From: an archaeon
Lineage (GTDB): Archaea; Aenigmatarchaeota; Aenigmatarchaeia; Aenigmatarchaeales; JACQIB01
DNA: 64,000 bases
Direction of reading: 5' to 3'
Assembly: GCA_035291225.1 (NCBI GenBank)
Contig: DATDSO010000010.1
Coordinates: 82,090 to 146,089 of the forward strand
Shown: positions 19,777-61,017 of the stretch, piece after piece
Numbering within the stretch: the stretch's first letter is position 1
Layout of the letters: every line of letters begins with the position of its first letter
Translations under genes and position numbers: made by a program
The notes under the pieces: model-generated
Database searches by the model: none
Seen by the model: the letters and a program-made list of their open reading frames with translations, nothing else
What the model was told of the DNA's origin: nothing

Positions 19777-22236
19777 ATGACTTACATAAAAGAGATTGAT
19801 TTTTCATTGATATCCCCGGCGATGCTAAAGAAAATCGCGGCCACAGAAATAACAAAGGCTGACATCTATGATAACGACGGATTTCCGATAGACGGTGGCG
19901 CAATGGATCCGAAACTCGGCATCGTTGATCCCGGAATGCGCTGCCGCAGCTGCGGACTAAATGTCGGACAGTGCGTGGGGCACTTCGGCTATATTGATTT
20001 GGTTCGGCCGATTTATCACGTCCTTTATGTAAAACTTATTTACAAAATTTTAAAAAATATTTGTTTAGCCTGCTCACGCTTAGCCTCTGGAACAAAATGC
20101 GCAAGCTGCGGGACGGAACAGAAAAAAATCCGGTTTGAAAAACCTTATACTTTCTATGAAGATGATAAACAGCTCAGCGGACTGCAAGTGAGAGAGCGCT
20201 TCGAAAAGATTTCTGATGATGATGCTCTTACGCTAGGAATTAAAGGCGGGAGACCGGAATGGCTTATTCTGACTTTGTTCCCTGTCCCTCCTGTAATTTC
20301 TCGTCCTTCAATAACTTTAGAAACAGGAGAGCGCAGCGAAGACGATTTGACCCACAAGCTTGTTGATATAATCAGAATCAATCAGAGGCTCAGGGAAAAT
20401 TTGGGAATCGGCGCGCCAGATTTTATTATTGATGACTTATGGGAACTTTTGCAGTACCATACCGCAACTTTCTTTGATAATGAACTTGCTGGCCTGCCTG
20501 CGGCGCGCCACCGCTCCGGCAGACCTTTGAAAACTTTGGCAGATAGATTAAAAAGCAAGGAGGGTAGATTCCGCCAAAATTTAGCAGGTAAGCGTGTTAA
20601 TTATTCTGCGAGAACTGTTATCTCTCCTGACACTCATTTGAGTATCGACGAAGTTGGCGTGCCACTTCAAGTTGCCCAAGAGCTTACAATTCCGGTTTAT
20701 GTGCGCGAACATAATATTGAAGAAATAAAAAAACTTTTGGCTATTGCTCCAATATGGCCAAGCGCAAACTATATAGTGCGCCCAGATGGAAAGAGGAAAA
20801 AAATTACAATTGAAAATCGTGAAGAGGTTATAAAGGAAATTTCACCGGGCTATATTGTTGAGCGCCATTTGCGAGATGGAGATGTTGTTCTTTTCAACAG
20901 GCAACCGTCTCTACATAGAATGAGCATAATGGCTCATCGTGTGCGTGTGCAGCCATGGAGAACTTTCACTTTGAATATTCCAGTTTGCCCGCCTTACAAC
21001 GCCGACTTCGATGGCGATGAAATGAATGTCCACGTTCCGCAGACAGATGAAGCGCGGGCGGAAGCAGAACTTTTGATGGGCGTGCAGAAGCATATCCGTT
21101 CTCCGAGATTTGGGGGTCCGATAATCGGATGCGAGCAGGACCATATTTCCGGATGCTACTTACTGACGAAATCTGAAACAGAAATCCCATCAGAGACAGC
21201 ATTCCAGCTACTCGCAGAAATTGGCATTGATCCTCAAATTCCAAAAAAGAAAAATATTACAGGCAAGGAAATTTTTTCAGGAATACTTCCGAAAGGGTTG
21301 AACATTGAATTCCGCGCAAAGGTCTGCAGCTGCGACAAAGGCTTCAAAGGCACATGCCCGAATGACGGCCATGTCGTTATCAAGAATGGCAAACTTGAAT
21401 CTGGGGTGATAGACAAAAACGCAATCGGACGCGAAGCAGGAAAATTGATTGATGTCATCGAGCGCTTATACGGAAGCGAGGAAGCGAAGAATTTCATAAA
21501 TAGGGTTTCTCTTCTAGGAATAAAATGGCTGGAGAAGGTTGGATTTACAATCGGCTTGGATGATGGCGAACTTACAGACGATGTCAGAAAAAAAATCAAC
21601 GAAGCCATAATGAAAGGGTATGAGGAAGCAGAACAACTTATAAAACTTTACCGAGGGGGGAAAGTTGAGCTGATGCCGGGAAGAGATATGAAAGAAAGTT
21701 TTGAGATTCAGATAAGAAATATTCTGTCTAATACTAGCGATGCTGTAGGAAAAATCGTTAAAAACAATTTGAAAGAAAGTCCAATTGTTATTATGGGTAA
21801 GACTGGAGCAAGAGGGAGTATAAACCACATTTCTCAACTTACTGGTGTTGTTGGTCAAGAGCACGCTCTTGGAGAAAGAATTATGAGAGGCTACCATGGC
21901 CGCACGCTATCTCACTTTTTGGTTGGGGATCTCGGACCGGCTGCACACGGTTTTGTGGCAAGTTCTTTCAAAATCGGTCTGAATCCATTTGAATTCTTTT
22001 TCGATGTTCTCTCTGGTAGAGAAGGTCTTATGGACAAATCTTTGAGAACTCGCCACAGCGGATATCTGGAGCGCAGGCTTATCGGAGCTTTGCAGGACTT
22101 GAAAATTGAATATGACGGCACTGTTCGCGATAACAGAAAAATTATAATTCAATTCTGTCCTGGAGAAGATGGAATAGATCCATCCAGATCTGACTGGGGA
22201 AAGATTGATATAAAAAGAATTGCTGCTGCTATTTAG
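19777..22236 (+). CDS. rpoA1: DNA-directed RNA polymerase subunit A' (N-terminal two-thirds of Rpb1).
   Basis: Zn ribbons CRSCG...C are present. The NADFDGDEMNVHVPQ catalytic motif is present. It ends where A'' begins. Confidence 0.97.
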   Translation: MTYIKEIDFSLISPAMLKKIAATEITKADIYDNDGFPIDGGAMDPKLGIVDPGMRCRSCGLNVGQCVGHFGYIDLVRPIYHVLYVKLIYKILKNICLACSRLASGTKCASCGTEQKKIRFEKPYTFYEDDKQLSGLQVRERFEKISDDDALTLGIKGGRPEWLILTLFPVPPVISRPSITLETGERSEDDLTHKLVDIIRINQRLRENLGIGAPDFIIDDLWELLQYHTATFFDNELAGLPAARHRSGRPLKTLADRLKSKEGRFRQNLAGKRVNYSARTVISPDTHLSIDEVGVPLQVAQELTIPVYVREHNIEEIKKLLAIAPIWPSANYIVRPDGKRKKITIENREEVIKEISPGYIVERHLRDGDVVLFNRQPSLHRMSIMAHRVRVQPWRTFTLNIPVCPPYNADFDGDEMNVHVPQTDEARAEAELLMGVQKHIRSPRFGGPIIGCEQDHISGCYLLTKSETEIPSETAFQLLAEIGIDPQIPKKKNITGKEIFSGILPKGLNIEFRAKVCSCDKGFKGTCPNDGHVVIKNGKLESGVIDKNAIGREAGKLIDVIERLYGSEEAKNFINRVSLLGIKWLEKVGFTIGLDDGELTDDVRKKINEAIMKGYEEAEQLIKLYRGGKVELMPGRDMKESFEIQIRNILSNTSDAVGKIVKNNLKESPIVIMGKTGARGSINHISQLTGVVGQEHALGERIMRGYHGRTLSHFLVGDLGPAAHGFVASSFKIGLNPFEFFFDVLSGREGLMDKSLRTRHSGYLERRLIGALQDLKIEYDGTVRDNRKIIIQFCPGEDGIDPSRSDWGKIDIKRIAAAI

Positions 22237-31337: not shown

Positions 31338-33434
31338 TCAGGCGTTCGTTTCTTGTTCCTCTTCTTCAGAATCTTGTTCTTCGTACACCTCGCTTACGCT
31401 GCCGAGTATTGTTCCGAATACATCTGTTGGATCTTTAATTGTTTTTATCTGCCCACCGCTTTCCTCAATCAGTTGAGTGAGTGCATTTTTTGCAGGATAT
31501 TTAACTATATGCAAAAGCGCAAGTTTGTTTCCGCGAGAAGTTGCTGTGCGTATAAACTCATTTGTTTCCTCGCTGATTTGGGAATTAAGTTCATCGATTT
31601 CGGCATCGGTTATCAAAACAGTAAAAACTGGATCTTTGTTTTTCTTGAGGATTTGTGTCATTGTTCCAGAAGGCAGAATTGTTCCTCCATTGGCTTCCTC
31701 TTTTGCCAAAAACACATTTTCGGCGCGCATGTAATTGGTTGTCCATTCTGTGTGCAGTTCTTCTGGGTATGGATCTGCATACGTTGCGCTGAAGTCAAGA
31801 GCGGCAACTCTTGCTCCGTGCTTTCCAGCTAAATCAAGAGCAGCAAAGGCTCCGACATTAGCTGACTCGTATTTTTTATCAAAAGCCATACTTCCAGAAG
31901 AGTCTCTGATGATAAGCAGATCAGGCCTTGCTACATAAACTTTGTGGCCTTTTCTAACCATCCTTGTTCTTTCTTTTAGCGTTGTTCTTCCCGGAATCAT
32001 TTCTGGAGAAATTGAAAGGGATTTCTGCACATCCAACTCTTCAACAGAGTCCCCGATATTCCACTTGCCAAAATATGTTCTTCTCGGTCTCCCTCTTCCT
32101 TTCTGAGTGGGCTTAACTTCCATCAAGTTTGCCGCTTTAACCCTGTACCAATATCTTTTTAATTCTCCCTCTTGAATGCCGGCTGCGCTCATAACTACTT
32201 TAAAATTTTCATAATTATTTTCATTTCTGCTGAAAGCTTCGGAAGCGTAAGCAGCCTGCTCTTCCTCGCTCATTTGCGGCGTGGTGCCTACCATGGCTCT
32301 TATATCAATCGGCAAACCTGCTTTGTTGGGGTATTCTTTTTTATCAGAGCATTTGCAGCCCGCGCCCTCTCCTTCTTTTTTCTCCTCTTGTTTTGATTTT
32401 CTTTGCGGCCTTCCTTGACCTCTGCCTTCAACAGGAATTGAAGGCGGCGCATATCTCCTTCCTTCCTGATCTTTAGATTTTTCATCTCCTTTTAACTTCT
32501 TTAAAATTCTTTTAATTATTTCACCTCTTCCGAAACCCGGCTCTTTCTCTTCTTGCTCTTTTCCTGGGCTTCCTCCCTGACCGCCGCTACCATCAACAGG
32601 CAGCCCCATATTTCCTTTCATACTTTGGTCTTGTTTCATTTGCTGGTTTTGTAATCTTTGCTGCTCTCTTAAAGCATCTTTTCTCATCACAGGCCCAATA
32701 ACTTTAGAGAACTCGCCGATCTTATCGTACCAGAGGCCCGAATCCCTATAATCTTTTCCAAGAACTTCTGCAACTCTTTCCGCTGCTTCTACTTCATGCC
32801 TGCTTAATCCTAAAGCTTCAACACCAAGATCAGTGTTCCACATTGATTCGTATGCTTTGTGAAATATTTTTACTGACTGGGATGCTTCCCCTTCCAATTT
32901 TTTATCCACGAGATTTTTAACATATTTCATGAATTCCCTTCGCCACCATTCCACAGTCTGGGAATTTGTTTTCTTTCCATAGCCATCTCTTCTCCAAGTG
33001 TCAATTACTATATCTCCGAATAGATTTACAATATTGTTTGCGTAATCAGGGACATGATCTCGTGGTATATTTTCTCCTGCCAATGATTTTGAAACAGCAT
33101 CAACCATTGCTGCCCTAGTTCTAATATCAAATGGAAAAATCTTGTAGTGAGTAATTTCATGCTCTGCACACTGCTGAAAATAATCTTCCTTCTCCCTTTC
33201 TGTCAAGCTGTCAGGTATTGCTGCTGCATTTAAATGCGGCCTCGCGCCTTCGTGCCATTCCAAACAAAAGGGGGACGGATCAGCAGGATCATAAATTATT
33301 TCAGGATCCGGAAGCTCGTTGCATGCTCTCATATTCCAACAGGCTCTATTGTAAACGCCTCCCCATCTTTGAAGATCAGCAGGGCTTTGAGGCTTTGCCT
33401 CTCTATCGCTTGCATCGGAGTTGTGTTCTGTCAT
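31338..33434 (-). CDS. Large vWA (MIDAS) domain protein, the MoxR partner. It has an N-terminal domain with HExxH, a low-complexity linker and an acidic tail.
   Basis: The C-terminal vWA carries the MIDAS motif DSSGSM and a downstream TDAEID. The N-terminus carries AEHEITHY. A Gln/Gly/Lys/Glu-rich linker is present. The C-terminal tail reads EEQDSEEEEQETNA. Confidence 0.75.
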   Translation of the reverse strand: MTEHNSDASDREAKPQSPADLQRWGGVYNRACWNMRACNELPDPEIIYDPADPSPFCLEWHEGARPHLNAAAIPDSLTEREKEDYFQQCAEHEITHYKIFPFDIRTRAAMVDAVSKSLAGENIPRDHVPDYANNIVNLFGDIVIDTWRRDGYGKKTNSQTVEWWRREFMKYVKNLVDKKLEGEASQSVKIFHKAYESMWNTDLGVEALGLSRHEVEAAERVAEVLGKDYRDSGLWYDKIGEFSKVIGPVMRKDALREQQRLQNQQMKQDQSMKGNMGLPVDGSGGQGGSPGKEQEEKEPGFGRGEIIKRILKKLKGDEKSKDQEGRRYAPPSIPVEGRGQGRPQRKSKQEEKKEGEGAGCKCSDKKEYPNKAGLPIDIRAMVGTTPQMSEEEQAAYASEAFSRNENNYENFKVVMSAAGIQEGELKRYWYRVKAANLMEVKPTQKGRGRPRRTYFGKWNIGDSVEELDVQKSLSISPEMIPGRTTLKERTRMVRKGHKVYVARPDLLIIRDSSGSMAFDKKYESANVGAFAALDLAGKHGARVAALDFSATYADPYPEELHTEWTTNYMRAENVFLAKEEANGGTILPSGTMTQILKKNKDPVFTVLITDAEIDELNSQISEETNEFIRTATSRGNKLALLHIVKYPAKNALTQLIEESGGQIKTIKDPTDVFGTILGSVSEVYEEQDSEEEEQETNA

Positions 33435-33448
33435 TATCTCACCATAAA

Positions 33449-34228
33449 TTAAGGTTTGGTTCCTTTGTAGGTAGCAAAAACTTCATGAAATTTTTTCAAA
33501 ATTGACACAACGGTTTTAATCCCATATTTTTGTGCTGTTTTTCCAATAGAATCAAGCGGCGGAAGCTGCCTTAGCAAATGATTACCCCATTGATTATATT
33601 CCAATTCAGTGGGCGCTTCTATTTTTTTGTCTTCCAACGCATCCACTAAAACAGCCGTCATAATGGGGCGCATATCTTTGGGCATAAGCAGCGCAATCAT
33701 GTAAGGGTGGGCCACTTTTGCTCGCTTTTGTTTGACATCGGTATCTTCATTATAATTCTGCCCCGGCACATTTACATCAGTAACTTTACTCCCTTCTAAA
33801 AAATATTCCGGGAACAAAATTTTTAGATTTTCCAAATCAACAACTTCTCCAACATCTGCCACATCTGTTTCCAGCAAATATGGATTTATTCTTTTTAACA
33901 ATGAATGCCAAACAGGTCTTTTTAGCTCTACTTTCGAATTAAATCTGTTAACTCGCCTTTCTCCCGTATCAAAGTTCGGAACTAATGTTATGCAGTGCGG
34001 TCCAGCATATCTGATAAACAAATTGTCATGTCCATAAATTTTGCATAAATATTCTCCAAGAACTTTTTCCATTTGCTCAATCAATTGCGGCGGAGTTCCA
34101 TCGCCAGAAGGCGGGGCTTTCTCCGCATCCTTTAGGCTCCCGTCTCTTGGAGACACTGGCTGAGAGCCATGCCTTCTCTCAAGTGCTTCCTTTATTGATG
34201 GGCTGGATGGTTCTGCCATAAAAATCAA
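33449..34228 (-). CDS. Hypothetical protein, paralog B of a tandem pair in the MoxR-vWA operon.
   Basis: Shares the N-terminal PSSPSIKEALERRHGSQPVSPRDGS and colinear blocks (NPYLLETDVADV.., AHPYMIAL) with the upstream gene. Confidence 0.6.
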   Translation of the reverse strand: MIFMAEPSSPSIKEALERRHGSQPVSPRDGSLKDAEKAPPSGDGTPPQLIEQMEKVLGEYLCKIYGHDNLFIRYAGPHCITLVPNFDTGERRVNRFNSKVELKRPVWHSLLKRINPYLLETDVADVGEVVDLENLKILFPEYFLEGSKVTDVNVPGQNYNEDTDVKQKRAKVAHPYMIALLMPKDMRPIMTAVLVDALEDKKIEAPTELEYNQWGNHLLRQLPPLDSIGKTAQKYGIKTVVSILKKFHEVFATYKGTKP

Positions 34229-35037
34229 TTTCTGCCTCTGTAAAGATTTGCAACATCAACAACTGCTTTTATTATGGGCTTCAAATCTTTCACTCCGTAT
34301 TCTTCTGCTACTTTAGCAAAACATTCTAAAGGCGGAACAGAGCCCCAAAGACAGCTTGCAACTCTCCCCATTTTAACCTCCGTTGGAACAATAACCATTT
34401 TATTTTTTATTGCGAGGGTTATCACAGCTGTTACATATGGCCTGACATCAGGCACTACAGATAACGCAAGCATATATGGATTTGCCAGTTTAGCTCGTCT
34501 GATATTTTCAGCTTCATTATTATAATCATTATCAACGAATGTCTCTCTAAAAGTTTCCAAAGCAGGAATTTCAGGTAACATATCCTTCAAAGCTTCCAAG
34601 CTAACAGCTTCTTCAACCTGAGCCAGATCTGTTTCCAGAAGATATGGAGATTTTTTTCTCAAAATAGAACGCCACATCTGCCTGCTCACACTGTCAGCTA
34701 ATCTTGGCTTAAAGCTACTTAAATTAGAATTTTGAAATACTGGCTCAACGAAAAGCAAGTAAGGCCCCATCCCTTTTAATGAAAAATGGTCATTTTCATA
34801 AATTTTATGAAGGCAGTCTCCCAACACCACTTCCATTTCTTCGAGAAGTTCTATCGGTATTTCACCTGTATGCGCAGAAAATTTTTTTCCGGCCTTTTCG
34901 CTTTCACTGCTATCTGAACCGCTCCCGTCTCTTGGGGATACTGGCTGAGAGCCATGCCTGCGTTCAAGAGCCTCTTTAATTGATGGGCTTGATGGAGGAC
35001 TTGGAGGTCCGCTTTCCATTTTATCACCTCTGTCCAC
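34225..35037 (-). CDS. Hypothetical protein, paralog A of the tandem pair. The true start may be the internal MESGPPS.
   Basis: The same N-terminal 23-aa motif and colinear blocks (SPYLLETDLAQV.., ANPYMLAL). It overlaps the stop of the MoxR gene. Confidence 0.6.
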   Translation of the reverse strand: MDRGDKMESGPPSPPSSPSIKEALERRHGSQPVSPRDGSGSDSSESEKAGKKFSAHTGEIPIELLEEMEVVLGDCLHKIYENDHFSLKGMGPYLLFVEPVFQNSNLSSFKPRLADSVSRQMWRSILRKKSPYLLETDLAQVEEAVSLEALKDMLPEIPALETFRETFVDNDYNNEAENIRRAKLANPYMLALSVVPDVRPYVTAVITLAIKNKMVIVPTEVKMGRVASCLWGSVPPLECFAKVAEEYGVKDLKPIIKAVVDVANLYRGRN

Positions 35038-36502
35038 TGCCGGGGTTTCTAAGTCTCTCGCGTATTAACGCCCTAAGTTGGTTTTGCGCACCCAGAGGCA
35101 AAGAACGGTATTCAGGTCTTCTCAAGTCTAACATCATTGTTGCAAGCTCTTGCGGATTTTTCATGCCGCCGATGCGGCCAACATTGTCTCTGTAAAGAGC
35201 ACTGTCCATTCCTTCAACAAAAGGAACCATATCTAATTTCACAATCAAGTCATCAAACTGTTGAAGCTTTTGGACATCTGAAGAATTTCCTTTGCCTTCC
35301 AGCAGAGTAAGGTAAATTTTTTCTGCTTCCAGTCTCTGATCCAACTTTCTCATGGAAATTTTCCAAGCGTCTCCAACCATTTCCATGAGGTTTCCATTAT
35401 AAGGGTCTTTCATCAAAATTTGATCATTGGGTTTTATTCTATGATATAAAGCATACGGGGCCATAGCTCCAGCAACCTCTACTGAAACCGAAGGCTGATC
35501 CAAAAGCCATGCAACTCTTTTTGCAACTTTGCTCCATCTTTCATGAGTTCTTGTGGAAATGTGGGCATCGGTCATCTGGCATGGATTTTTTATTCCAACC
35601 GCAGAAACTTTTATGTCAGTAGCATAGTGGCATTTGTTGCACAAACCTTCGGATGGTTTTCCCCTTCCTTTAGCTTTATCACCGTCGGCTTTTATGCAAA
35701 GCGATAATTCTTTTTCAAAGTAAGTCATCTGCAACATGGCATCCGAGTCAATCGGAATTTTATCTGCTTCTTTTGTTGCTTCTGTCAAATCTTCAAATGT
35801 CGTAATTTGCTCTAATCCTCTGCCATGAAGAGAAACATCTTTTCTGCCTGCAATCTCAGCCAAGTCTGCCATAGAAGCTGGCTCAACAGGGCAAGATAAA
35901 ACGAAACGGTCGTACATAGCTGGGTCAACTTCAAATGTTCCTTCTCCAAAAGGATTTATGGTTCCAAAAACTCTTTGATCGGGAACAACGAAAGCCGCGT
36001 CTGCATATTTCCAAACGCCCTCTTCTATACCTGCGAAAAACATATTCATAACTTCCGGAGAGGCTCTGTTGAACTCATCTGCCACCTTCCACCTTCCAAG
36101 CGTCCATTTTCTGGGCACAGGAACTTCTTGAGGATTATTTCTGTCCAATAATTTTGCCATGTCTGGGCGAGCGACTATTTTTTCTTCTGTTTGCTCTGGG
36201 TGAAGCCTAAGAACATTAGTTTCAATTTCTGATTCAGGTATGCCTGCAAGCATTACACCCAATGCTTTTGCTAGAGAAGTTTTTCCGTCTCCATGTCCAC
36301 CCACATATAGAATTGTGCCACCCGGTGTTATTGCTGTTGCGATTCCTAAAAATGCCGCCGCCTCATAAGATTCTCTCTGTTTTACACCACCCCGATCCAC
36401 GACAACACGAAAAGGATCGGAGCTATTCAGATAAATAAGCCTGTCTCCCAATGTGTAATAGGCGCTCATTAATTTATCTCTAAGCTTCTCTGGATTAGCC
36501 AT
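35024..36502 (-). CDS. MoxR-family AAA+ ATPase with an extended Cys-containing C-terminal region.
   Basis: Walker A GGHGDGKT. The MoxR-specific Walker B region VADEFNRASPEV. Sensor-1 region FGTINPFGEGTFEVDPAMYDRF. A promoter-like AAGCTTTATATA lies ~35 nt upstream on the minus strand. Confidence 0.8.
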   Translation of the reverse strand: MANPEKLRDKLMSAYYTLGDRLIYLNSSDPFRVVVDRGGVKQRESYEAAAFLGIATAITPGGTILYVGGHGDGKTSLAKALGVMLAGIPESEIETNVLRLHPEQTEEKIVARPDMAKLLDRNNPQEVPVPRKWTLGRWKVADEFNRASPEVMNMFFAGIEEGVWKYADAAFVVPDQRVFGTINPFGEGTFEVDPAMYDRFVLSCPVEPASMADLAEIAGRKDVSLHGRGLEQITTFEDLTEATKEADKIPIDSDAMLQMTYFEKELSLCIKADGDKAKGRGKPSEGLCNKCHYATDIKVSAVGIKNPCQMTDAHISTRTHERWSKVAKRVAWLLDQPSVSVEVAGAMAPYALYHRIKPNDQILMKDPYNGNLMEMVGDAWKISMRKLDQRLEAEKIYLTLLEGKGNSSDVQKLQQFDDLIVKLDMVPFVEGMDSALYRDNVGRIGGMKNPQELATMMLDLRRPEYRSLPLGAQNQLRALIRERLRNPGSGQR

Positions 36503-36564
36503 AAAACCACATACTCCTTAATAGAATATACCACCTATTAGTATATAAAGCTTGTGGTAAGCTG

Positions 36565-37158
36565 TTAATAAAAAAGCAAATCCGCTGTTGCAGCAGAAAC
36601 AACTGCAGGCATTGTTATCACAGCCACTTGCTTGAAAGCATCTATCCCAGCGCCTGTTCCAAGTATTGAGACAAAAATAAATGAAGTCAGAAAAGAAATT
36701 ATGTAAACCTCAACTGCGCGCAAAGCTGAGGCTCTGAAAATTTGTGTTGAGACAAACTTTCTCCTGCGCGAAAAATAAATCAGGAGAAATCCCAAAAAGA
36801 ACCCGAGAAAAATCACAGACAACATATTCAATAAATTGAGCCTAGCTGAAATATCCCAAACTTCCTGTGTTACAGTAAAGAACATCGCACCGAAAGCTGC
36901 GCCCACAAAATCCTGCGCAACAAGAATTGTCGGCTTTCCGTGGAGGAATCCAAATTCCTTTTCCTTCCTTTCTTTATACTTCAAATCTTCCAGAGCTTCA
37001 ATATCTTCTGTGATTTCCTGTGCGACTTTTTCCAGGCGCTCCTCAGCAATTTCAAGCTTGTCAGCCTCGCTCATTTTCCTTAGTTTTTTCTTTATTGTTC
37101 TGCTTTTTTCAGCAGCCGCTATCCGGCCGCGCATTTTCAAGGGAAAACCTTTTGCCAT
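36565..37158 (-). CDS. Membrane protein with an N-terminal coiled-coil and four C-terminal TM helices.
   Basis: A charged coiled-coil region (EADKLEIAEERLEKVAQEITEDIEALEDLKYKERKE) followed by hydrophobic helices. It lies 62 nt upstream of the MoxR gene on the same strand. Confidence 0.5.
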   Translation of the reverse strand: MAKGFPLKMRGRIAAAEKSRTIKKKLRKMSEADKLEIAEERLEKVAQEITEDIEALEDLKYKERKEKEFGFLHGKPTILVAQDFVGAAFGAMFFTVTQEVWDISARLNLLNMLSVIFLGFFLGFLLIYFSRRRKFVSTQIFRASALRAVEVYIISFLTSFIFVSILGTGAGIDAFKQVAVITMPAVVSAATADLLFY

Positions 37159-39269: not shown

Positions 39270-39749
39270 ATGAAAACTTTTTCAATTTTATTGGTGACGA
39301 TTATTTTAGTAGCTGGGTGCACAGCCAAATCGGGAGAAATAAATTCTCCACACAACACAGAAAAAGAGTCTTCGTCTTCAACTTCTATGGCATTGACTTC
39401 AGAATCGGTAGATGGGGTGTCTTCCACAACTACAACATCTGTAGTTTCAAAGTGCCCTGATTTTTCTGCATTACCTCACGGCTTTGATGAACAGGTTGGA
39501 AGTGTTGTTGTGAATACTCCAAAGAATCAAGAATTCAATGGGTATAAAGTAAAGGGAACATATTCTTCGCCGATAGCTGGCTCTTTTGTGCCATGCAAAA
39601 AGGGAAGTCGAGTTGGAGAAAATTCTAACTACTACTATTGCCGAGATATGATAGTGAACAAAGTAGATGCGAGTGGTAATATCTTAGATGCTAAAAAGAT
39701 GACGGTTGTTTTGGACGCAGACAATGCTTATGTAACAACGTTATGCTAA
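39270..39749 (+). CDS. Secreted lipoprotein with a Ser/Thr-rich linker.
   Basis: Signal peptide MKTFSILLVTIILVAGCTAKSGE, a lipobox nearly identical to that of 7925-8584. An S/T tract is present. Confidence 0.55.
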   Translation: MKTFSILLVTIILVAGCTAKSGEINSPHNTEKESSSSTSMALTSESVDGVSSTTTTSVVSKCPDFSALPHGFDEQVGSVVVNTPKNQEFNGYKVKGTYSSPIAGSFVPCKKGSRVGENSNYYYCRDMIVNKVDASGNILDAKKMTVVLDADNAYVTTLC

Positions 39750-43332: not shown

Positions 43333-44304
43333 ATGAAAGATTCGAAATCGGTTTTTTTGATTGGATTGATTTTTATTCTGTTTGTTAGCGGATGTGCGGC
43401 AAAGCTTCCTGCGGGTACAACAACTACAGCAGCTCCCGCAAATGTTACCACAACAACTCTACCCCCAACAACCACAACAATTCCCGGCCCTGAAAAAATT
43501 GCAGATGGGGTCTCAGCGTTTTTGATTTCCAACAGCACTATTTACTATCTTTCTGAAACAGAAGCAAAACTCTATAAGTATGCAAAAGGCTCTCAGCCGA
43601 CTGAACTTGCCTCTGGTATTGGAATAAAAACAAGAAATATTCTGGATGACGGTGATTACCTCTACTTCACTCATGAGGTGGGCGGCGCAGCAAAATTCAG
43701 CAGAGTTCCGAAAGCGGGCGGCCAGCTGGAAGAGAAATTTTCATGCTCTCCGGGAAATCTCGCAAATTTATTCTCGGATGATACATACATCTATGTTCTA
43801 CCAACAACAGGCACGTTTTGCCGACTCTTGAAAACAACGTTCGCCTCAGATGGAAATTTCAGGCTGGGTGTTGCCGGAGCAGGTGAGAATTTAGTTTATG
43901 ATTCAAAAAATGTTTTCTTTCCAGATACTCAGTGGATAAAGAAAGTCCCGCGGATAGGGAAAATCGAAGTGGGCGTTCTGGTAAGCGAAGTTGTGAAATC
44001 TAACTTACTTTTGGATGGAACAAGTATTTACTGGATAAATAAAAACAATGAGCTCTACAAAGTCGGTACAGATGGAAAGGGGAAAGTCCTTATTGCACAG
44101 AAAATCGATTCTAAATATATAGCCCAAGATACAGCATCAATTTACTTTATAGAAAACTCCGATAACTCAATAAAGAAAATAGTAAAAGCCGGCGGTGCTC
44201 CAGTTACATTGGGAAAACTTTCTGGTCCCGCATCAAAAATTGAAGTCGATACTGAAAATATTTATTGGTTGCAAGAAGGAAGCTTGATGAAAAAAAGGAA
44301 ATGA
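43333..44304 (+). CDS. Secreted lipoprotein with a Thr-rich linker and beta-propeller-like repeats.
   Basis: Signal peptide plus FVSGC lipobox. The tract TTTAAPANVTTTTLPPTTTT. Repeats of the form (S/D)xxIY(Y/F/W)(L/I): TIYYL, YLYFT, YIYVL, SIYWI, SIYFI, NIYWL. Confidence 0.6.
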   Translation: MKDSKSVFLIGLIFILFVSGCAAKLPAGTTTTAAPANVTTTTLPPTTTTIPGPEKIADGVSAFLISNSTIYYLSETEAKLYKYAKGSQPTELASGIGIKTRNILDDGDYLYFTHEVGGAAKFSRVPKAGGQLEEKFSCSPGNLANLFSDDTYIYVLPTTGTFCRLLKTTFASDGNFRLGVAGAGENLVYDSKNVFFPDTQWIKKVPRIGKIEVGVLVSEVVKSNLLLDGTSIYWINKNNELYKVGTDGKGKVLIAQKIDSKYIAQDTASIYFIENSDNSIKKIVKAGGAPVTLGKLSGPASKIEVDTENIYWLQEGSLMKKRK

Positions 44305-44306
44305 AG

Positions 44307-45350
44307 TCATTGAACAACAATTGGAATTCCCTCAAACTTTTTCTCTGACTCAGAAAAAATTTCTTCAGAAATTTTCATTTTTGAAAAATTTTGTTTTGTA
44401 TAAAGTGGCGGCGCGGGAATTTTCTGATTTACCAAAAGCCCAACGCGCGCGTCCTCCTGCGAATCTGCAAATTTATAATCTGGCAAAAATTTTTCAAGCT
44501 CTTTGCAAAAGTCCAAAACTTCTGAAAATGTTGGCATGCGAGTTGTAGGCATCCGCTCGCGCGACTGCCCAATTGCAGACCAACCTTTCACTTCAATAAA
44601 ATGCGGCTTTGCTTTTGATATAAGCTCTGCATATTTTTCTGGAGCTTCCATGTTCAAGTTTTTTACCATTGTGAGCCTGATAACTTTTCTTGTTTCAAGT
44701 CTCGGTAAAATAGAAATCGTGCGCAAAATATTTTTCCACATTATTTTTCCTTGTGTTGGGTGCTGAGTTTTTACGAACATTTCCTCGTTGTTCGCAGAAA
44801 GGGAAACATAAAGTTGTGTCGGCAGCGGATTCATTGTTTCCAATCTTTCAGGATATGTTCCGTTTGTAACAAGAAAAGTTGTCATGCCGTGTGCATGGAA
44901 TTCTTCAATCATGTGCTGCAAATAAGGATAAGTTGTCGGCTCGCCATCCAAACTTATTGCAACATGAGCTGGCTCCATTGCTTCTTTCAAATGTTTTTTT
45001 GAATGCTCAACGCCACCGAGCCCTGTTAAAAGTTTTTTCTGCGCTTCGATTGCCTCCTTTACTAAATCTTTCGGGCTGTCCACTAAATTTTCTTCAGAAT
45101 CTTTGAAATAGCGAAAATCGCGCCAGCAATAACTGCAGCGCAAATTGCAGGTTGTCATTGTTGGAGTAAACTGCACGCAGCGGTGCGAGCGGATACCATA
45201 AAATTTTTGCTTGTAGCAGGTTTTCTCCCCGCCGGTTTTTACAGAAGCTTTTGTGTAGTGGCAGAGCTTTACTGCCGAGTGCTTGTTTTTCCCAATGATT
45301 TTGTAGTTTGCTTTTTGCAGCCTTGCTAATTGTTCGGGTGTGAGTGGCAT
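44307..45350 (-). CDS. taw1: tRNA 4-demethylwyosine synthase (Taw1/TYW1, radical SAM).
   Basis: Radical-SAM CNLRCSYCW motif. The upstream Cys cluster CVQFTPTMTTC. The characteristic segment HVAISLDGEPTTYPYL. Confidence 0.8.
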   Translation of the reverse strand: MPLTPEQLARLQKANYKIIGKNKHSAVKLCHYTKASVKTGGEKTCYKQKFYGIRSHRCVQFTPTMTTCNLRCSYCWRDFRYFKDSEENLVDSPKDLVKEAIEAQKKLLTGLGGVEHSKKHLKEAMEPAHVAISLDGEPTTYPYLQHMIEEFHAHGMTTFLVTNGTYPERLETMNPLPTQLYVSLSANNEEMFVKTQHPTQGKIMWKNILRTISILPRLETRKVIRLTMVKNLNMEAPEKYAELISKAKPHFIEVKGWSAIGQSRERMPTTRMPTFSEVLDFCKELEKFLPDYKFADSQEDARVGLLVNQKIPAPPLYTKQNFSKMKISEEIFSESEKKFEGIPIVVQ

Positions 45351-45469
45351 ATAATTCAGTTATAATTTTAGAATTCGAAAGTTTATAAAACCTTTATGAA
45401 AATTCCTCACGGAAGTTTTACAAAATTTGTAAAGAATAATATATAAATCCCCTCGAGAGTAATTTTCAC

Positions 45470-48400
45470 ATGGGTTGTAATAAATTATTATTAGCTCTTG
45501 CTGTATTTTCTATTTTAATAATTTCTGTAGCAGCAACTCCAGCGCTTGCCGCAGATCCTGTAACAGATTTTTTTAATTGGCTTTTTGGAGTAACCGGAGC
45601 GCAGACAGGAAATGAAACTCCGGCATCTTCAAGCAGCACAACATCAAGTTCAACCACAACAACTACATCAATACCCAGCTGCGAGGGACCAATACCTTCT
45701 TCAGGATGTACATGTCCCAGTCCGGGCGGACCCGTTTATTATAGCGGCTTTTGTTGTAGCAATACTTATCAGGCCTCTACAGCTTGCGGAACAACTTCAA
45801 CTTATACTACAGCAACTTCCTCCTCTTCATGCCCATCTTCTGTCCTTTCTGTTTTAGGAGAAGGATGCCACTTCATGTACACCGGAAGTGATGGAAGATC
45901 TATTTATTGCAACAGCGGAATGACGCGCTCAATGAAAGAGAGCGACACAGCAGCGAAAGACGGATGCACGTCTGACACAACCACAACAACTTATTCCGGA
46001 ACAACAACCTCCTCTCTTCCTTCCACAAGCACCCCATGCACAATTGGCTCTGCGATAACTTCTCTCTGCAACTGCGGCGGGTATTCTTATAATTCTGGAT
46101 ATTGCTGTTCTTCAACATCGGGTTCAGGAAGCGGATATTTCCAGAGCAATGCCTGCGGGACAACCACAACTTATTACACTTCAACAACTTACTCTTCAAC
46201 ATGCCCTTCCACTGTTCTTTCTGTTTTAGGAACAGGATGCCATCAGATGTATACAGGAAACGATGGTAAAACAATTTACTGCGATAGTGGAATGACGCGC
46301 TCAATGAAAGAAGGAGACACCGCCTCAAAAAGTGGATGCACATCTGAATCAAATGTTTGTAGTTCCTCAAATCCGTGGTATTGCTATGATCAAACTTCTT
46401 GCACAGGAGTCTCTGCAAACTGGTGCAAGAGCAGCAGCACAAGTGGCGGATATTGCTCAACCTCAACATGCCCAACTTGTTCAAAGGACAGCGCATGGAA
46501 TTGTTATGACCAGAGCGGCTGCACAGGAGCTGGCGGAAATTGGTGCCAATCAGGAGGTTCAAGTTATGGATATTGTCAAAATTCTGCATGCCCAACCTGC
46601 AGTTCTTCGAGTCCATGGAATTGTTATGATGAAACTTCTTGCAAAGGAGCAACAGGAAATTGGTGCAAGAGTTCTGCCTCCTCGGGAGGAACTGCTACAT
46701 ACAGCTCTGGCTGGTGTTCTTCAAGTTCATGCCCAACCTGCGCCTCAACTTCAAAATATAATTGTTATACAGAAACAGACTGTAAAGGAGCAACAGGAAT
46801 CTGGTGCGGTTCTCAATCAGGTTCAGGAGGATATTGCGGTGAAGCGGTTTGCCCAACTTATACTTGTTCAAAGAGCGAGCCATGGAACTGTAAAGACCAA
46901 ACAACTTGTTCTGGCGCAGGAGCGAGCTGGTGCTCCGGCTCCGGAGGATATGGATATTGTTCAAGCTCATGCCCAACCTGCGACAAAACTAATCCGTGGA
47001 ATTGTTATACAAAAGAAGCGTGTACTGGCGTGAGTGCGCAATGGTGTTCGGGCTCGGGTGGTTATGGATATTGTTCCAGTTCAACATGTCCAACATGTAG
47101 CTCAACAACAAAATATAATTGTTACGATGAAACTTCCTGTAAAGGCGCAACGGGAAGCTGGTGCATTTCCCAATATGGAGGAAGCGGTTGGTGTCAAGAT
47201 TATTCATGTCCAACTTATACTTGTTCAAAATCAGAACCTTGGAATTGTAGAGATGAAACAACCTGTAAAGGTGCAGGAGCAAGCTGGTGCGGCAGTTGGT
47301 GTCAAACTAGCTCTTGCCCGACTTGTTCAAAATCTCAGATATGGAACTGCAACACAAAAGAAACTTGTACAGGAACAGGAGCAAACTGGTGCACAAGTCA
47401 AAATATAGCTTATGCTACGGCAGCGGGTGGAGCAGCAGCATCATCGCCACCGTCGTCTGGTTGGTGTCAAGAATCTTCCTGCCCAACTTACGCTTGTTCG
47501 AAAACAGAACCTTGGTATTGTTATGACCAGAATTCTTGCTCAGGAGCAGGAGCGAGTTGGTGCACTGGTTATGGCGGAGCAGGAGGTTATTGCCAAAGCG
47601 GATCCTGCCCAACTTATACATGCTCTTCTTCAAATCCATGGAATTGTTTCAAAGAAGAAGAATGCAAAGGAGCAGGAGCGCGGTGGTGTGTGACAACATC
47701 ATATGGAACTACCTTAAATGGGTGGTGCTCAAATTCCTGCCCAACTTGCAGCTCAACACAAAAGTATAATTGTTTTGATAAAACTTCCTGCGCGGGCAGC
47801 GATGGATACTGGTGCGGTACAGAATCAACAGGATGGTGCGCTGACCAAAAATGCGCCACTTGCAGTACAACCCAGCCATGGAACTGTTATGATAAAGAAA
47901 CATGCACAGGGGCAAGCGGAAGTTGGTGCACAAATCAATACAGCACTTATGGATCAACCGCAGTTGTTTCATCCGGCTGGTGCCAATCTAATGATTGCCC
48001 AACATGTTCAAAATCCCAGCCATGGAATTGTTTTATTGAAACAGACTGCAAAACAAACGGAGGCAACTGGTGCGGCACGTGGTGTCAAGACAGCTCATAC
48101 CAATGCCCATCAACAAAGGGCTACAATGTAGAGGAGAAAAAAGAAAATTTCATAAAACCTGAAAATTGCAAAGAGCAAAAAGATTCTAATACAGGTTACA
48201 CTAATTATGTTTGTGAAAAGAAGACTGAAGAAAAATGTCCAGAGCTTTCGGTAGATGTAAAAGAGAAATGCGAATCAAATAGTGGAAAGCTTACGATAAA
48301 GAAAGATAGGCGTGGCTGCGAATTTACAGACTGCAGATTCAAAGAAGAGTTTAATCCAGACAAGAAATTTATTTTAAAGAAATTTGACCGCTGCCCAACA

Positions 48401-49423
48401 GATGCTGAATTAAATGAATATCAAAGTTCCTGCGAAAAATCTGGCGGCACACTGAAAACAAGCTTGGAAGGCGGTTGTAAAATAGGATTTTGTTTGAACG
48501 CTGATGAGAATGAATGTGAAAGAGAAATAAATCCAAAGTTTGAGAAAGAGATCGAAGAGAAATGCAAGAAAGAGGGACTTGTGGTTGTGAAAGACTTTGA
48601 TCCGCGCGGCTGCACGGTTTTGCACTGCGGCGAACAAGACTTCTGCAAGAAAGTCCCGAAGAATGCTTATAGTGAGTGCGAGAACCAAGGCGGTGAGCTT
48701 GTTGTTAAAACAGATGAAAGAGGGTGCGCGACTTTCTCTGAATGTGTAAGGCCTGGAGATGAAAAAGTTTATTTGGAGGAGCATGAGAAAATAACTGAAA
48801 TTCCGGATGAAACAGAATTGCTTTCCCTTGCTTTGAAGCTCGAGGAATTAAAAGTTTCGTTTGATAAGATGTCAACTCAGGCAAAGGATCTGGCTAATTA
48901 TTATAAATCAACAGGAAGTTCAGAAGCTAAGAAGTTAACAAGAGTCGCAGATATGTTTGCTGCTGCTACTGGAAAAATAGATGAAATAAAAACAGCATTG
49001 AGAAACAAACTAACAACAATAACGCCGGCTGATTTAGAGGAGATAAAGCTTGAGATAAGGACAATCAGGAAAGTGACTTTGAAGGACATTTTGTATGTTA
49101 TGCTTAGCACAAAAGATGATGTGAAAGATATCGTTGATGAAAAGGAAAAAGATTGCGGCATAGATGGGCTCTGCTTTGACAAGAGCTTCAGAATATGCCA
49201 AAAAGCAATAATGAGATCTGACCAAGAGGGAACGTTTGTAAGAATAACTGGAGAAAGCGATGGAAAGTGCTTGATGGAAGCTGAAGCAAAAGTCGCTGGA
49301 ATCGCAGTTTCAATGAAATGCGAAGTGCCGAACTATGCTCTTGGATTTAAGAACCCAGAAACAGATGTACTTCCATACTGCACGGGCGGTTTAGTTGATG
49401 CTATAAAAACGGGAAAGGTTTAG
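45470..49423 (+). CDS. Giant secreted Cys-rich tandem-repeat protein (putative surface/adhesin protein).
   Basis: N-terminal signal peptide. S/T-rich tracts. More than 20 tandem ~40-aa modules of the form CPTC-x(3-5)-WNCY-x(3)-C-x-GA-x-G-x-WC. Four C-terminal C..C..GC..C modules in a Lys/Glu-rich region. Confidence 0.75.
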   Translation: MGCNKLLLALAVFSILIISVAATPALAADPVTDFFNWLFGVTGAQTGNETPASSSSTTSSSTTTTTSIPSCEGPIPSSGCTCPSPGGPVYYSGFCCSNTYQASTACGTTSTYTTATSSSSCPSSVLSVLGEGCHFMYTGSDGRSIYCNSGMTRSMKESDTAAKDGCTSDTTTTTYSGTTTSSLPSTSTPCTIGSAITSLCNCGGYSYNSGYCCSSTSGSGSGYFQSNACGTTTTYYTSTTYSSTCPSTVLSVLGTGCHQMYTGNDGKTIYCDSGMTRSMKEGDTASKSGCTSESNVCSSSNPWYCYDQTSCTGVSANWCKSSSTSGGYCSTSTCPTCSKDSAWNCYDQSGCTGAGGNWCQSGGSSYGYCQNSACPTCSSSSPWNCYDETSCKGATGNWCKSSASSGGTATYSSGWCSSSSCPTCASTSKYNCYTETDCKGATGIWCGSQSGSGGYCGEAVCPTYTCSKSEPWNCKDQTTCSGAGASWCSGSGGYGYCSSSCPTCDKTNPWNCYTKEACTGVSAQWCSGSGGYGYCSSSTCPTCSSTTKYNCYDETSCKGATGSWCISQYGGSGWCQDYSCPTYTCSKSEPWNCRDETTCKGAGASWCGSWCQTSSCPTCSKSQIWNCNTKETCTGTGANWCTSQNIAYATAAGGAAASSPPSSGWCQESSCPTYACSKTEPWYCYDQNSCSGAGASWCTGYGGAGGYCQSGSCPTYTCSSSNPWNCFKEEECKGAGARWCVTTSYGTTLNGWCSNSCPTCSSTQKYNCFDKTSCAGSDGYWCGTESTGWCADQKCATCSTTQPWNCYDKETCTGASGSWCTNQYSTYGSTAVVSSGWCQSNDCPTCSKSQPWNCFIETDCKTNGGNWCGTWCQDSSYQCPSTKGYNVEEKKENFIKPENCKEQKDSNTGYTNYVCEKKTEEKCPELSVDVKEKCESNSGKLTIKKDRRGCEFTDCRFKEEFNPDKKFILKKFDRCPTDAELNEYQSSCEKSGGTLKTSLEGGCKIGFCLNADENECEREINPKFEKEIEEKCKKEGLVVVKDFDPRGCTVLHCGEQDFCKKVPKNAYSECENQGGELVVKTDERGCATFSECVRPGDEKVYLEEHEKITEIPDETELLSLALKLEELKVSFDKMSTQAKDLANYYKSTGSSEAKKLTRVADMFAAATGKIDEIKTALRNKLTTITPADLEEIKLEIRTIRKVTLKDILYVMLSTKDDVKDIVDEKEKDCGIDGLCFDKSFRICQKAIMRSDQEGTFVRITGESDGKCLMEAEAKVAGIAVSMKCEVPNYALGFKNPETDVLPYCTGGLVDAIKTGKV
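46340..48110 (+). repeat. Coding tandem repeat array (about 22 six-cysteine modules, ~115-130 bp each) inside the giant gene.
   Basis: Recurring nucleotide words (tcatgcccaacctg, ccatggaattgttat, ggtgcaagag) at ~120-bp spacing. Opposite-strand ORFs over this region are repeat-induced artefacts. Confidence 0.7.
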
Positions 49424-49432
49424 GTGAGATAA

Positions 49433-49714
49433 ATGTTTGATTCAATAATTGCGGCAAGGAGAAAGGATTCGGGAAAAGATAGCGGCAGTTCGGATTTTAT
49501 TTCAAAAAACAAGACAGCACTAGCTCTTGTTTTGATATTGGTTGTTGTTGCGGTCTTTGTCGCGCAACCAAAGGGAGTTGTGCAGGGCCCGAGCACTCCA
49601 ATCGAATCGAAAATTTCAACTCAATCAGAAGCTGGAGAAACTATTTCAGACTTGAGCTCTTCTGCAGCAGCTGTTAGCTCTTTCTTGAAAGACATCGATA
49701 ATAGCATTGGTTGA
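49433..49714 (+). CDS. Small membrane-anchored hypothetical protein.
   Basis: GGTGAGATAA SD immediately upstream. One TM helix (ALALVLILVVVAVFV). Confidence 0.35.
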   Translation: MFDSIIAARRKDSGKDSGSSDFISKNKTALALVLILVVVAVFVAQPKGVVQGPSTPIESKISTQSEAGETISDLSSSAAAVSSFLKDIDNSIG

Positions 49715-56555: not shown

Positions 56556-57020
56556 TTATTGTATAGGCACGCTGAAATCTTTTGTGAGAATATTGTTGCT
56601 CTCATCGGATTCAGAAATTCTTTCCACAGGGTCAACTCTTATAGTAAGCGTGTACTCGCCGTCAGAAAGTCCATAATATTTCAGCAAAATCTGCGAGCTG
56701 CTGGATCCGATATTTCCCTTGTTCACCTGCTCCTCGGGATAAATTAATTTTCCGGTTGCTTTCTCTTTTACCTCCGCGCCAACAATAACATTTTCAGCTG
56801 CGGCTTTTCCTTTGTTGAATATTGTTGCGCTCACGGAAATCTGCCCTGCCAATTTAGAAAAACTAACGCTGTCAGAAATATACAAATCCGGCAGAGCAGA
56901 GCCTGCTTGTGTTGTTGTCGCAGTTGCCGCTGCCGTGGAAGTTGTTGCAGCAGAAGTTTGCGAGCCCACGCATGCGGAGATGAAAATTATTGAAACCAGC
57001 GCGAACAGCAATTTTTTCAT
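56556..57020 (-). CDS. Secreted lipoprotein with a CARDB-like beta-sandwich domain.
   Basis: Signal peptide plus ISAC lipobox. An Ala/Thr linker. A NKGKAAAENV block. Confidence 0.5.
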   Translation of the reverse strand: MKKLLFALVSIIFISACVGSQTSAATTSTAAATATTTQAGSALPDLYISDSVSFSKLAGQISVSATIFNKGKAAAENVIVGAEVKEKATGKLIYPEEQVNKGNIGSSSSQILLKYYGLSDGEYTLTIRVDPVERISESDESNNILTKDFSVPIQ

Positions 57021-60486: not shown

Positions 60487-61017
60487 TTAAGAACATGCGC
60501 CCCACAAACCCCTTAAATTTTCTTTTGCTTCTATCTCTGCCTGTTTGAATTGTGATTGATATTTGTAGGGTGTTTTGTAAGTGTATTCTCTCGCAAATCC
60601 TTCGGAAATCAGAAGCTGATTAAAGTTTGTTCCATTCTCAAGAAAAACATATCTCAATAACCTTTTATATTTATCTCTATTGTCTTGTGTTGGGTCTGCT
60701 TCCAGCTTGATTATTGCCCCCCCCCCCAGAATTTCTTTCGCAAAATTGCTGGCTTCCAAACCAAAACACTCCAAGGGTTTTGAAGGGTGAACTGTTTCCG
60801 GCGTGTCAATTCCAATCAAACGAACTTTCTCTATCGTGCCGTTATAATCTACCCAAATCGTATCTCCATCAACGACTTTCACAACATCATAAAATTGTGT
60901 GTCGTAAGGTTGAGCACCTTGAATTGTTGTGGATGGCATTTGATAATCTGTGTCGGATGTGCAACCAGCTATTAGAACTGACAAAAGTAGAAAGAAGAAT
61001 AGAGTTTGTTTTTGCAT
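60487..61017 (-). CDS. Secreted thermonuclease (SNase-like) lipoprotein.
   Basis: LIAGC lipobox. SNase motifs VKVVDGDT, RLIGIDTPE, and ...GLWG. Confidence 0.8.
   Translation of the reverse strand: MQKQTLFFFLLLSVLIAGCTSDTDYQMPSTTIQGAQPYDTQFYDVVKVVDGDTIWVDYNGTIEKVRLIGIDTPETVHPSKPLECFGLEASNFAKEILGGGAIIKLEADPTQDNRDKYKRLLRYVFLENGTNFNQLLISEGFAREYTYKTPYKYQSQFKQAEIEAKENLRGLWGACS
60717..60727. repeat. Homopolymeric C11 (G11 on the coding strand) tract inside the nuclease gene.
   Basis: Eleven consecutive C at 60717-60727 in a ~38% GC genome. They encode GGG(A) in the minus-strand frame. Confidence 0.8.

Follow-up and report, generated by a model that had tools for sequence, protein, structure and literature searches.

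A secreted cysteine-rich repeat protein with a new six-cysteine module and a small membrane partner in an aenigmatarchaeal genome: a candidate cell-surface stalk

A gene in a 64-kb window of DNA from a DPANN archaeon (64,000 nt of contig DATDSO010000010.1, referred to below as the window) was found to encode a secreted, cysteine-rich protein of 1317 amino acid residues (aa). In this large protein, 14 tandem copies of a six-cysteine module precede a conserved C-terminal base, and the gene is followed directly by that of a small membrane protein, the partner. Base and partner form the family-defining unit and the six-cysteine array is one of several interchangeable outward arrays, because five further loci keep both base and partner without any six-cysteine module. 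Both the domain family and the two-gene cassette are new, within the familiar class of secreted repeat-stalk surface proteins. We give about an even chance to the reading that the large protein is a membrane-tethered extracellular stalk or adhesin, that is, a cell-surface contact structure.

Organization of the gene and its product

The features of the locus are collected in Table 1. The product matches exactly the public record HLE07858.1 ("hypothetical protein" VI933_04560), and 129 of its residues (9.8%) are cysteines. According to hydropathy analysis, the signal peptide is the sole hydrophobic stretch, with no hydrophobic window outside aa 1-31. An archaeosortase/PGF-CTERM anchor was not found at the C-terminus, which reads ...CTGGLVDAIKTGKV and has neither a transmembrane (TM) window nor an NCBIfam PGF-CTERM match. 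A Ser/Thr-rich linker leads from the signal peptide to two duplicated units that share 66% identity across 107 aligned residues; at the DNA level, 179 nt are 77% identical (repeat family D7). Unit 1 is made up of a "GxC-x-C..Y-SG(F/Y)CC" sub-module followed by a "CPSSVLSVLGxGCH.MYTG.DG..IYC.SGMTRSMKE" sub-module. An earlier note, made from the sequence, had described a gene of this length for a secreted, cysteine-rich repeat protein with two duplicated N-terminal units, and this description was borne out, each unit spanning about 110 aa. The TATA-box-like element upstream of the start codon is a putative promoter and may give rise to a short-leader transcript.

Table 1. Features of the locus for the large protein and its partner
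Feature	Residues (aa)	Coordinates	Strand	Evidence
TATA-box-like A/T element, aataatatataaat		45436..45449	+	About 25 nt 5' of the ATG; read from sequence
Gene for the secreted cysteine-rich protein	1317 aa	45470..49423	+	ATG start, intact open reading frame (ORF; ORF list)
Sec-type signal peptide, MGCNKLLLALAVFSILIISVAATPALA/ADP	1-27	45470..45550	+	n/h/c-region pattern, A-L-A/A cleavage-like site
Duplicated distal unit 1	61-170	45650..45979	+	Local alignment with unit 2
Duplicated distal unit 2	176-294	45995..46351	+	Local alignment with unit 1; DNA repeat family D7
14 tandem six-cysteine modules	297-879	46358..48106	+	14 hidden Markov model (HMM) domains; 84 Cys
Start of base: beta-hairpin C900-C915 and four four-cysteine modules		48167..48745	+	Cys invariance, AlphaFold2, HMM
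Four-cysteine modules, each predicted helix plus beta-hairpin	923-955, 975-1008, 1016-1053, 1059-1092			4 HMM domains
Three long helices, predicted helical bundle	~1114-1212	48809..49105	+	AlphaFold2; region kept in all homologues
C-terminal alpha/beta domain, six invariant Cys	~1227-1313	49148..49408	+	AlphaFold2, predicted local distance difference test (pLDDT) ~85-93
Shine-Dalgarno-like AGGTGA		49422..49427	+	Overlaps the stop of the large gene, 5 nt 5' of the partner ATG
Partner gene, single-pass membrane protein (HLE07859.1)	93 aa	49433..49714	+	Hydropathy, alignment of orthologues

Since gene callers in at least six other assemblies place wrong-frame ORFs over the array and retain no more of the protein than 309 C-terminal aa, the true genes might be the shorter ORFs called elsewhere (233, 124, 93, 137 and 309 aa). 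The probability of this is practically nil. Those assemblies carry DNA identical to that of the window, which leaves the 3954-nt ORF open in each; the long frame is kept as protein in more than 20 homologues, with a base 25-71% identical and invariant cysteines; and the NCBI record itself gives the 1317-aa product. The identical open DNA and the protein-level conservation of the frame thus ruled out an annotation or assembly artefact. The wrong-frame calls of 233, 124, 93 and 137 aa and the 309-aa fragment were observed at loci L010-L015 (alternative frame, window 46332-48131, plus strand), and at L016 a 3.3-kb "gene-free" gap lies at the corresponding place. The codon make-up of the array, with a GC content of 0.46 vs about 0.40, leaves long open alternative frames. 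In most public assemblies the gene is broken up into wrong-frame ORFs by standard gene callers, and for this reason the family is probably under-annotated and under-counted in surveys of DPANN metagenome-assembled genomes (MAGs).

The six-cysteine module

When the array was cut at CP(T/S)C, 14 units of about 36-55 aa with a mean pairwise identity of 52% were obtained, and the module HMM matched exactly 14 domains (41-59 bits per domain) and no other place in the window. The tandem six-cysteine periodicity that had been proposed for this region is therefore real and far above chance, and the proposed number of modules (more than 20, or about 22) is to be lowered to 14. The consensus of the module is C-S-x3-(P)W-N-C-Y-x4-C-x-G-A-G-G-x-W-C-x(3-28)-G-(Y/W)-C-x(3-6)-C-P-T. 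The best phasing of the unit is C-x7-C-x5-C-x7-C-x(3-28)-C-x(3-6)-C(P), with exactly 14 x 6 cysteines from C297 to C879. With this phasing the apparent anomaly of a first module without CPTC disappears, the last unit being closed by C879 in "...YQCPST".

No Pfam-A family was matched at E<=10 by the whole protein, by five sub-regions or by 38 triple-module fragments. NCBIfam returned noise only for the large protein, a phmmer search of the PDB sequences with it returned nothing, and a 73-sequence module profile found 0 PDB chains at E<=10. A three-module fragment was modelled with AlphaFold2 (38-row alignment) at a mean pLDDT of 82.4. In the predicted fold, a short helix near Y-x4-C is followed by a beta-hairpin bearing the "WC" and "G(Y/W)C" cysteines, and this arrangement recurs three times. 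Foldseek with the triple-module model gave 0 PDB matches at E<=10 and nothing significant in BFVD. By these searches of Pfam, NCBIfam, the PDB sequences and, with Foldseek, the PDB structures, the module belongs to no curated family, in agreement with the apparently novel type of the earlier note. In the literature on cysteine-rich surface proteins of DPANN archaea and Aenigmatarchaeota, no description of the large-protein family was found.

The module profile was also run against 1.84 billion representative proteins, of which 93 matched at E<=1e-3 and 42 at E<=1e-10. Among the carriers are the DPANN family, a few proteins (P0026, P0031 and P0039) in which the module is a simpler four-cysteine version and the tail a long coiled coil, and a further group, P0032-P0037, with a match to the C-x7-C-x5-C...W core only. 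In ten tested matches, P0032 and P0033 included, no Pfam coverage was found. P0032-P0037 are metagenomic proteins of about 1000 aa with Pro-rich linkers, 7-10 copies of C-x7-C-x5-C-x(4-7)-W and other cysteine-rich flanks; the style of these sequences is all that might suggest a "eukaryote-like" origin. The core motif of the module may be older and more widespread than the DPANN family.

Family-wide, all six cysteines were present in 71 of 132 module instances. Wherever the "WC" cysteine was missing, the following "CP" cysteine was missing too (13 of 13 variant modules); modules with the "WC" cysteine mostly retained three cysteines between the fourth core cysteine and the next unit, and the other four module cysteines were nearly invariant. 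This paired loss points to a disulfide between the fourth and sixth cysteines of the re-phased unit, and three disulfides per module may be inferred. The only large hydrophobic residues conserved in the module are W, Y, W and Y/W. Most plausibly, these aromatics would form the mini-core of a 38-residue domain rather than a ligand site.

The conserved C-terminal base

At E<=1e-3, 13 homologues of the large protein were found, the best being 62% identical over 95% of the query. Nine homologues aligned with the whole C-terminal ~420 residues as a single block (E 1e-30 to 1e-207), whereas the number of six-cysteine modules found by the HMM ranged from 6 to 22 among the homologues. In a 10-sequence alignment (A1), about 24 cysteines and several Gly and Leu residues of the base were invariant. 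These include all cysteines of the hairpin and the four-cysteine modules, and C351, C357, C365, C389, C406 and C426 (A1 numbering) of the terminal alpha/beta domain.

The four-cysteine modules have the form C-x(10-15)-C-x15-C-x(4-5)-C, and the region that contains them (aa 923-1092) consists of 16.5% Glu and 13.5% Lys. Four such modules in a Lys/Glu-rich tail had been noticed earlier, with a final spacing of GC-x(3)-C that is corrected here to GC-x(4-5)-C. The helical, coiled-coil-like tail that had been predicted with them also found support, in the three helices of the AlphaFold2 model (residues 236-270, 274-301 and 308-334 of the 439-aa base model, pLDDT 82-92). This model had an overall pLDDT of 72.8, with values of 82-93 over its last 200 residues. 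That the C-terminal region is a conserved base, and that a partner gene lies downstream of it, had been omitted from the note.

Foldseek with the 439-aa base model as one query against the PDB gave no match at E<=1e-3, only helical-bundle noise, and a profile search of the PDB with the four-cysteine modules returned nothing. DUF333 (PF03891) was considered for these modules and rejected: the best match scored 17.9 bits (E 0.004) against a gathering threshold of 25, and at E<=1 only two of the 68 four-cysteine modules of the family matched, both below the threshold, the other 66 giving none. When 19 family members were searched against Pfam, accessory domains only were found, namely Kazal in 4-5 members, Big_1 in one and CarboxypepD_reg in one.

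The partner gene and its conservation

In the partner, a basic N-terminus precedes a TM helix at aa ~21-52, the span of its hydrophobic 19-aa windows, and the last ~35 aa follow a conserved pattern, ..IS(T)..eAGe.Is.lSs....V.sfL.DID.s(I/L)G (alignment A5, 7 orthologues). In several orthologues a lipobox-like ..(S/T/A)GC stands in place of the plain TM helix, and the length in the family ranges from 55 to 98 aa. With a TM helix that follows a basic N-terminus, or with a lipobox, the conserved C-terminal segment would lie outside the cell. The gap between the large gene and the partner gene is 9 nt and holds no TATA-like element; such an element reappears before the gene for ribosomal protein S8e. 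Together with the short gap, the Shine-Dalgarno-like AGGTGA indicates co-translation, and the two genes are read as a putative bicistronic operon with translational coupling.

Nine loci were collected from GTDB species representatives (Aenigmatarchaeota, Woesearchaeota and "uncultured archaeon" MAGs) by a contig scan with five closer base sequences. A full-length large gene with downstream DNA was present in seven of the nine, and the partner was located directly 3' in six of these seven (L002, L004, L005, L006, L007 and L009), as it is in the window. No neighbour other than the partner was conserved across the GTDB-derived loci. An independent test started from the partner, for which 40 homologues were found by alignment search: in five of five further loci, the ORF immediately upstream bore the base (E 1e-17 to 1e-134). 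In all, the partner adjoined the large gene in 12 of the 13 loci examined. Members of the family are thus recognized by a ~420-aa base with ~24 invariant cysteines and a small TM or lipobox gene directly 3', both of which were found in the window.

The five partner-derived loci lack six-cysteine modules, and the N-terminal parts of their large proteins consist of other small cysteine-rich modules. At L016-L019 (e.g., L018 3050-5986 and L019 1107-3857), examples of these are "CPxxPxPPxC..Y....YD..GC..GY.C" and "CG(N/D)..C..GE....C..DC", and the proteins close with a long C-terminal extension, rich in Gly, Pro and Gln, that ends in "...C.GCLNN.VCDPGEC..C.DC(I/L)R".

Stability of the array at the DNA level

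The earlier note had taken the repeats to be conserved at the DNA level and the locus to be recombination-prone. The first view did not hold, and the second found no support. Pairs of codon-aligned modules were on average 56.5% identical in DNA, at most 73%, and exact direct repeats in the array reached 20 nt at most. The DNA repeat families were 60-85% identical, and Tandem Repeats Finder reported no tandem repeat in 45300-49600, which places the diverged repeats beyond the reach of DNA-level tools. The 4.5-kb region was compared with six other public assemblies (Logan runs and ENA analyses, from at least five different sample accessions); five were 100% identical and one had a single mismatch, with no indel. 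The closest homologue, P0001, is 62% identical and has 15 modules. Window modules 5, 6, 8, 9, 10, 12, 13 and 14 paired best with P0001 modules 6, 7, 9, 10, 11, 13, 14 and 15, so that eight of window modules 5-14 were colinear with P0001 modules 6-15, with identities mostly at or above that of the best paralogue within the protein. The array is old and positionally stable, and neither concerted evolution nor a changing copy number has left a trace in it at this time-scale.

Comparison with known cysteine-rich and surface proteins

Like the module, the eukaryotic EGF-like, integrin I-EGF and PSI domains are six-cysteine units of about 40 residues that are arranged head-to-tail as rods on secreted or surface proteins, and the Gly-rich turn and "WC" of the module recall the "CgWC" of PSI. 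However, no profile match to EGF, PSI or TSP models was obtained even at E<=10. The EGF fold consists of two hairpins and is all-beta, whereas a short helix and a single hairpin are predicted for the module. The EGF disulfides are C1-C3, C2-C4 and C5-C6, in contrast to the Cys4-Cys6 bond suggested here, and the EGF cysteine spacing differs from the x7/x5/x7 of the module. With no profile match and a different predicted fold and disulfide, membership in the EGF superfamily was rejected. The PSI domain (PF01437) was likewise rejected, as there was no Pfam match and its core, C-x(5-6)-C-x2-C-x(6-8)-C-x-W-C, contrasts with C-x7-C-x5-C-x7-C. Hevein-like CBM18 domains are 30-43 aa long, rich in Gly and Cys, and have conserved aromatics and a "G-(W/Y)-C" that resembles the module, which makes them a lead only. 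The module had no match to them (PF00187) at E<=10, lacks the "CC" doublet and has six cysteines rather than eight; its aromatics more plausibly form the mini-core.

In its architecture, the large protein resembles the bacterial fibrillar adhesins, which likewise have a signal peptide, a stalk of variable repeat number, distal units and a conserved cell-proximal end. Signal, stalk repeats and distal units were observed here, and the anchor would be supplied by the conserved partner gene. The differences are that the large protein is archaeal; that its stalk unit is a new disulfide-rich mini-domain rather than an Ig-like, G5 or Big domain; that it has no LPXTG, PGF-CTERM or TM anchor, so that anchoring would go through a separate small membrane protein; and that a distal adhesive region, typical of fibrillar adhesins, is not recognizable in it. 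The Sulfolobales SlaA/SlaB pair offers another parallel: there, too, the gene for a large secreted protein lies beside that of a membrane-anchored partner, and a helical region is located near the membrane-proximal end. SlaB has roughly 400 aa, far more than the partner here, and the likeness is drawn from gene layout; moreover, SlaA/SlaB forms a lattice, whereas the large protein is predicted to be rod-like. The tail modules recall Kazal and DUF333 domains, which are small helix-plus-hairpin cysteine modules with a "C-x3-GG-...-GC" signature, and Kazal domains adjoin the four-cysteine modules in some homologues. Kazal domains have six cysteines, the tail modules four, and Kazal was rejected for the window protein, which matched neither PF00050 nor PF07648.

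Alternative roles

The earlier note had also named a surface-layer (S-layer) protein as a candidate. In such a role, the large protein would build a lattice held by the partner as a membrane stalk, in the manner of SlaA and SlaB. A large secreted protein paired with a co-transcribed membrane-anchored partner fits this picture, as does a protein that is variable outside and conserved inside, like many S-layer proteins; the neighbourhood near S8e is conserved in the window, L005, L017 and L018, which suggests vertical inheritance rather than mobility. Yet no S-layer family of Pfam or NCBIfam was matched (MSTP/DUF1608-like, S_layer_N/C), and the AlphaFold2 models of the base and the triple module contain no beta-sandwich. 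The S-layers of Aenigmatarchaeota have been predicted to be MSTP-like beta-sandwich proteins in a survey preprint (10.1101/2024.05.28.596244), so the S-layer slot is probably filled by a different family, and the lack of an MSTP-like domain in the large protein weakens the claim. In addition, a linear array of 40-aa beads makes a rod and not a tile, the partner is far below the size of SlaB, and about 20-40 family members stand against more than 100 RpoB clusters in the phylum, a comparison blurred by fragmented gene calls. An S-layer role is accordingly considered unlikely.

That the large protein is set free from the cell and acts as a multivalent binder or inhibitor, for example as a protease inhibitor or a toxin-like array, is quite unlikely. 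The large protein has no anchor of its own, the helix-plus-hairpin disulfide modules are similar in size to inhibitor scaffolds, and the true Kazal domains of the 4-5 family members that have them lie between array and base. The window protein, however, has no Kazal domain, and its four-cysteine modules fail the Kazal and DUF333 profiles, apart from the two weak, sub-threshold matches in the family. The strict conservation of a partner tethered to the membrane speaks for a protein that is kept at the cell, and a long helical bundle with a base domain is atypical of inhibitors. It is very unlikely, finally, that the cysteines bind metal in an extracellular metal-sequestering, redox or mineral-contact protein for anoxic habitats. 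DPANN habitats are likely anoxic, and a recurrent C-P-T-C (CxxC) motif among so many cysteines would suit such a protein. Metal binding has often been proposed for small archaeal cysteine-rich "dark" domains (PMC13607799). The pairwise loss of cysteines in all 13 variant modules nevertheless fits disulfides and not four-ligand sites, as does the even number of six cysteines per unit; the module consensus has no conserved His, Asp or Glu ligands, AlphaFold2 gives a confident module fold without metal, and the remaining four invariant cysteines are spaced x7/x5/x(11-36), unlike zinc knuckles.

Proposed role

In the stalk or adhesin reading, the large protein would be exported by the Sec pathway without a membrane anchor of its own, and its base would dock onto the small membrane- or lipid-tethered partner, as suggested by the adjacency of the genes, so that the protein is kept at the cell surface. 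The N-terminal two-thirds would project outward, each of the 14 mini-domains being stapled by three probable disulfides and having an aromatic mini-core. The array would then form a semi-rigid rod of tens of nm that presents the two duplicated cysteine-rich units at its tip. EGF-like domains of comparable size span 2-3 nm each; with the same length per unit, the stalk would measure ~30-40 nm and could reach past an S-layer. An outward part that is interchangeable on a fixed base may be a determinant of contact or adhesion, directed at a host cell, a partner cell or a substrate. The range of 6-22 modules and the wholesale exchange of the distal part would fit such a function under diversifying pressure.

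Several points weigh against this reading. Localization at the surface, the adhesive role and the rod geometry are conjectured from sequence and prediction, and the docking of base and partner is deduced from gene adjacency only. The duplicated units had no Pfam match, and no adhesive or lectin domain was recognizable at the tip. One locus of the survey, L003, has no partner downstream. Covariation backs one of the three proposed disulfides only. Aenigmatarchaeota are found mostly in anoxic groundwater and sediment; extracellular disulfides are not guaranteed in an anoxic habitat, and the cysteines could serve otherwise. Finally, the lack of a known fold is weaker than it sounds, as Foldseek is insensitive for tiny disulfide-rich domains.

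A bolder proposal, which we hold to be doubtful, is a DPANN-specific surface-display system, in which the base and its lipid- or TM-tethered partner would be a fixed platform into which lineages plug interchangeable disulfide-rich arrays. Array and tip would then recognize the host cell envelope and act as a host-range factor, and a lineage-specific purge of N-X-S/T sequons would keep the binding surface bare. In the large protein, one sequon was observed against 13.9 +/- 3.0 expected, and 0 of 500 shuffles gave a number as low, whereas sequons across the window ORFs were not depleted (67 vs 75.6 expected). Nine close homologues had 0-2 sequons, and the distant, module-bearing P0006, P0008, P0009, P0016 and P0018 had 8-30. 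When the motif positions were fixed, the depletion was significant for the array only (0 vs 8.1 expected), where the conserved residue after "WNC" accounts for part of it.

Other features of the window

A small-genome archaeon had been supposed at the outset, and the host, an Aenigmatarchaeota MAG, fits a DPANN archaeon of this kind: the best named matches of RpoB are to Candidatus Aenigmatarchaeota (65-69% identity), and the contigs that carry the locus proteins are up to 873,710 bp long. The neighbouring genes are archaeal and include a TYW1/Taw1 radical-SAM enzyme, ribosomal protein S8e, TFIIB and RNA polymerase subunits. RNA polymerase B (16469-19774, plus strand) and A' (19777-22236, plus strand) are separate genes, 2 nt apart; many relatives in the Aenigmatarchaeota have single products of 1910-1916 aa with the Pfam domains of both B and A', either real fusions or read-through calls. 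No tRNA gene was found in the window by ARAGORN.

Lipobox-like signal peptides of the form ...(V/I/S)(A/S)GC(T/A/V)... were found in the ORFs at 43333-44304 (plus), 7925-8584 (minus), 39270-39749 (plus), 56556-57020 (minus) and 60487-61017 (minus). The first of these encodes a 323-aa protein two genes upstream of the large gene, with a weak LRP1-like beta-propeller match. Taken with the lipobox in partner orthologues, these ORFs suggest heavy use of lipoprotein-type anchoring in this archaeon. The overlapping ORFs 33449-34228 and 34225-35037 (both minus) share the near-identical peptide "PSSPSIKEALERRHGSQPVSPRDGS", which points to a putative local gene duplication inside an uncharacterized minus-strand block (31338-37158).

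Implications

How DPANN archaea attach to and recognize their hosts is largely unknown, and most of the candidate proteins are unannotated. The locus supplies a rare domain family of ~40 residues, rich in disulfides as predicted here and without a counterpart in Pfam, the PDB or Foldseek. Its pairing of a large secreted protein with a small membrane tether gives a specific anchoring hypothesis, and its exposed part is exchanged between lineages while the base is retained. If the display-system proposal were true, the protein would be a host-range factor comparable in logic to the receptor-binding fibres of phages. The finding overturns nothing; for DPANN biology it is of use as a possible structure for host contact, as a case of a gene that annotation overlooks and as a well-defined target for structural work.

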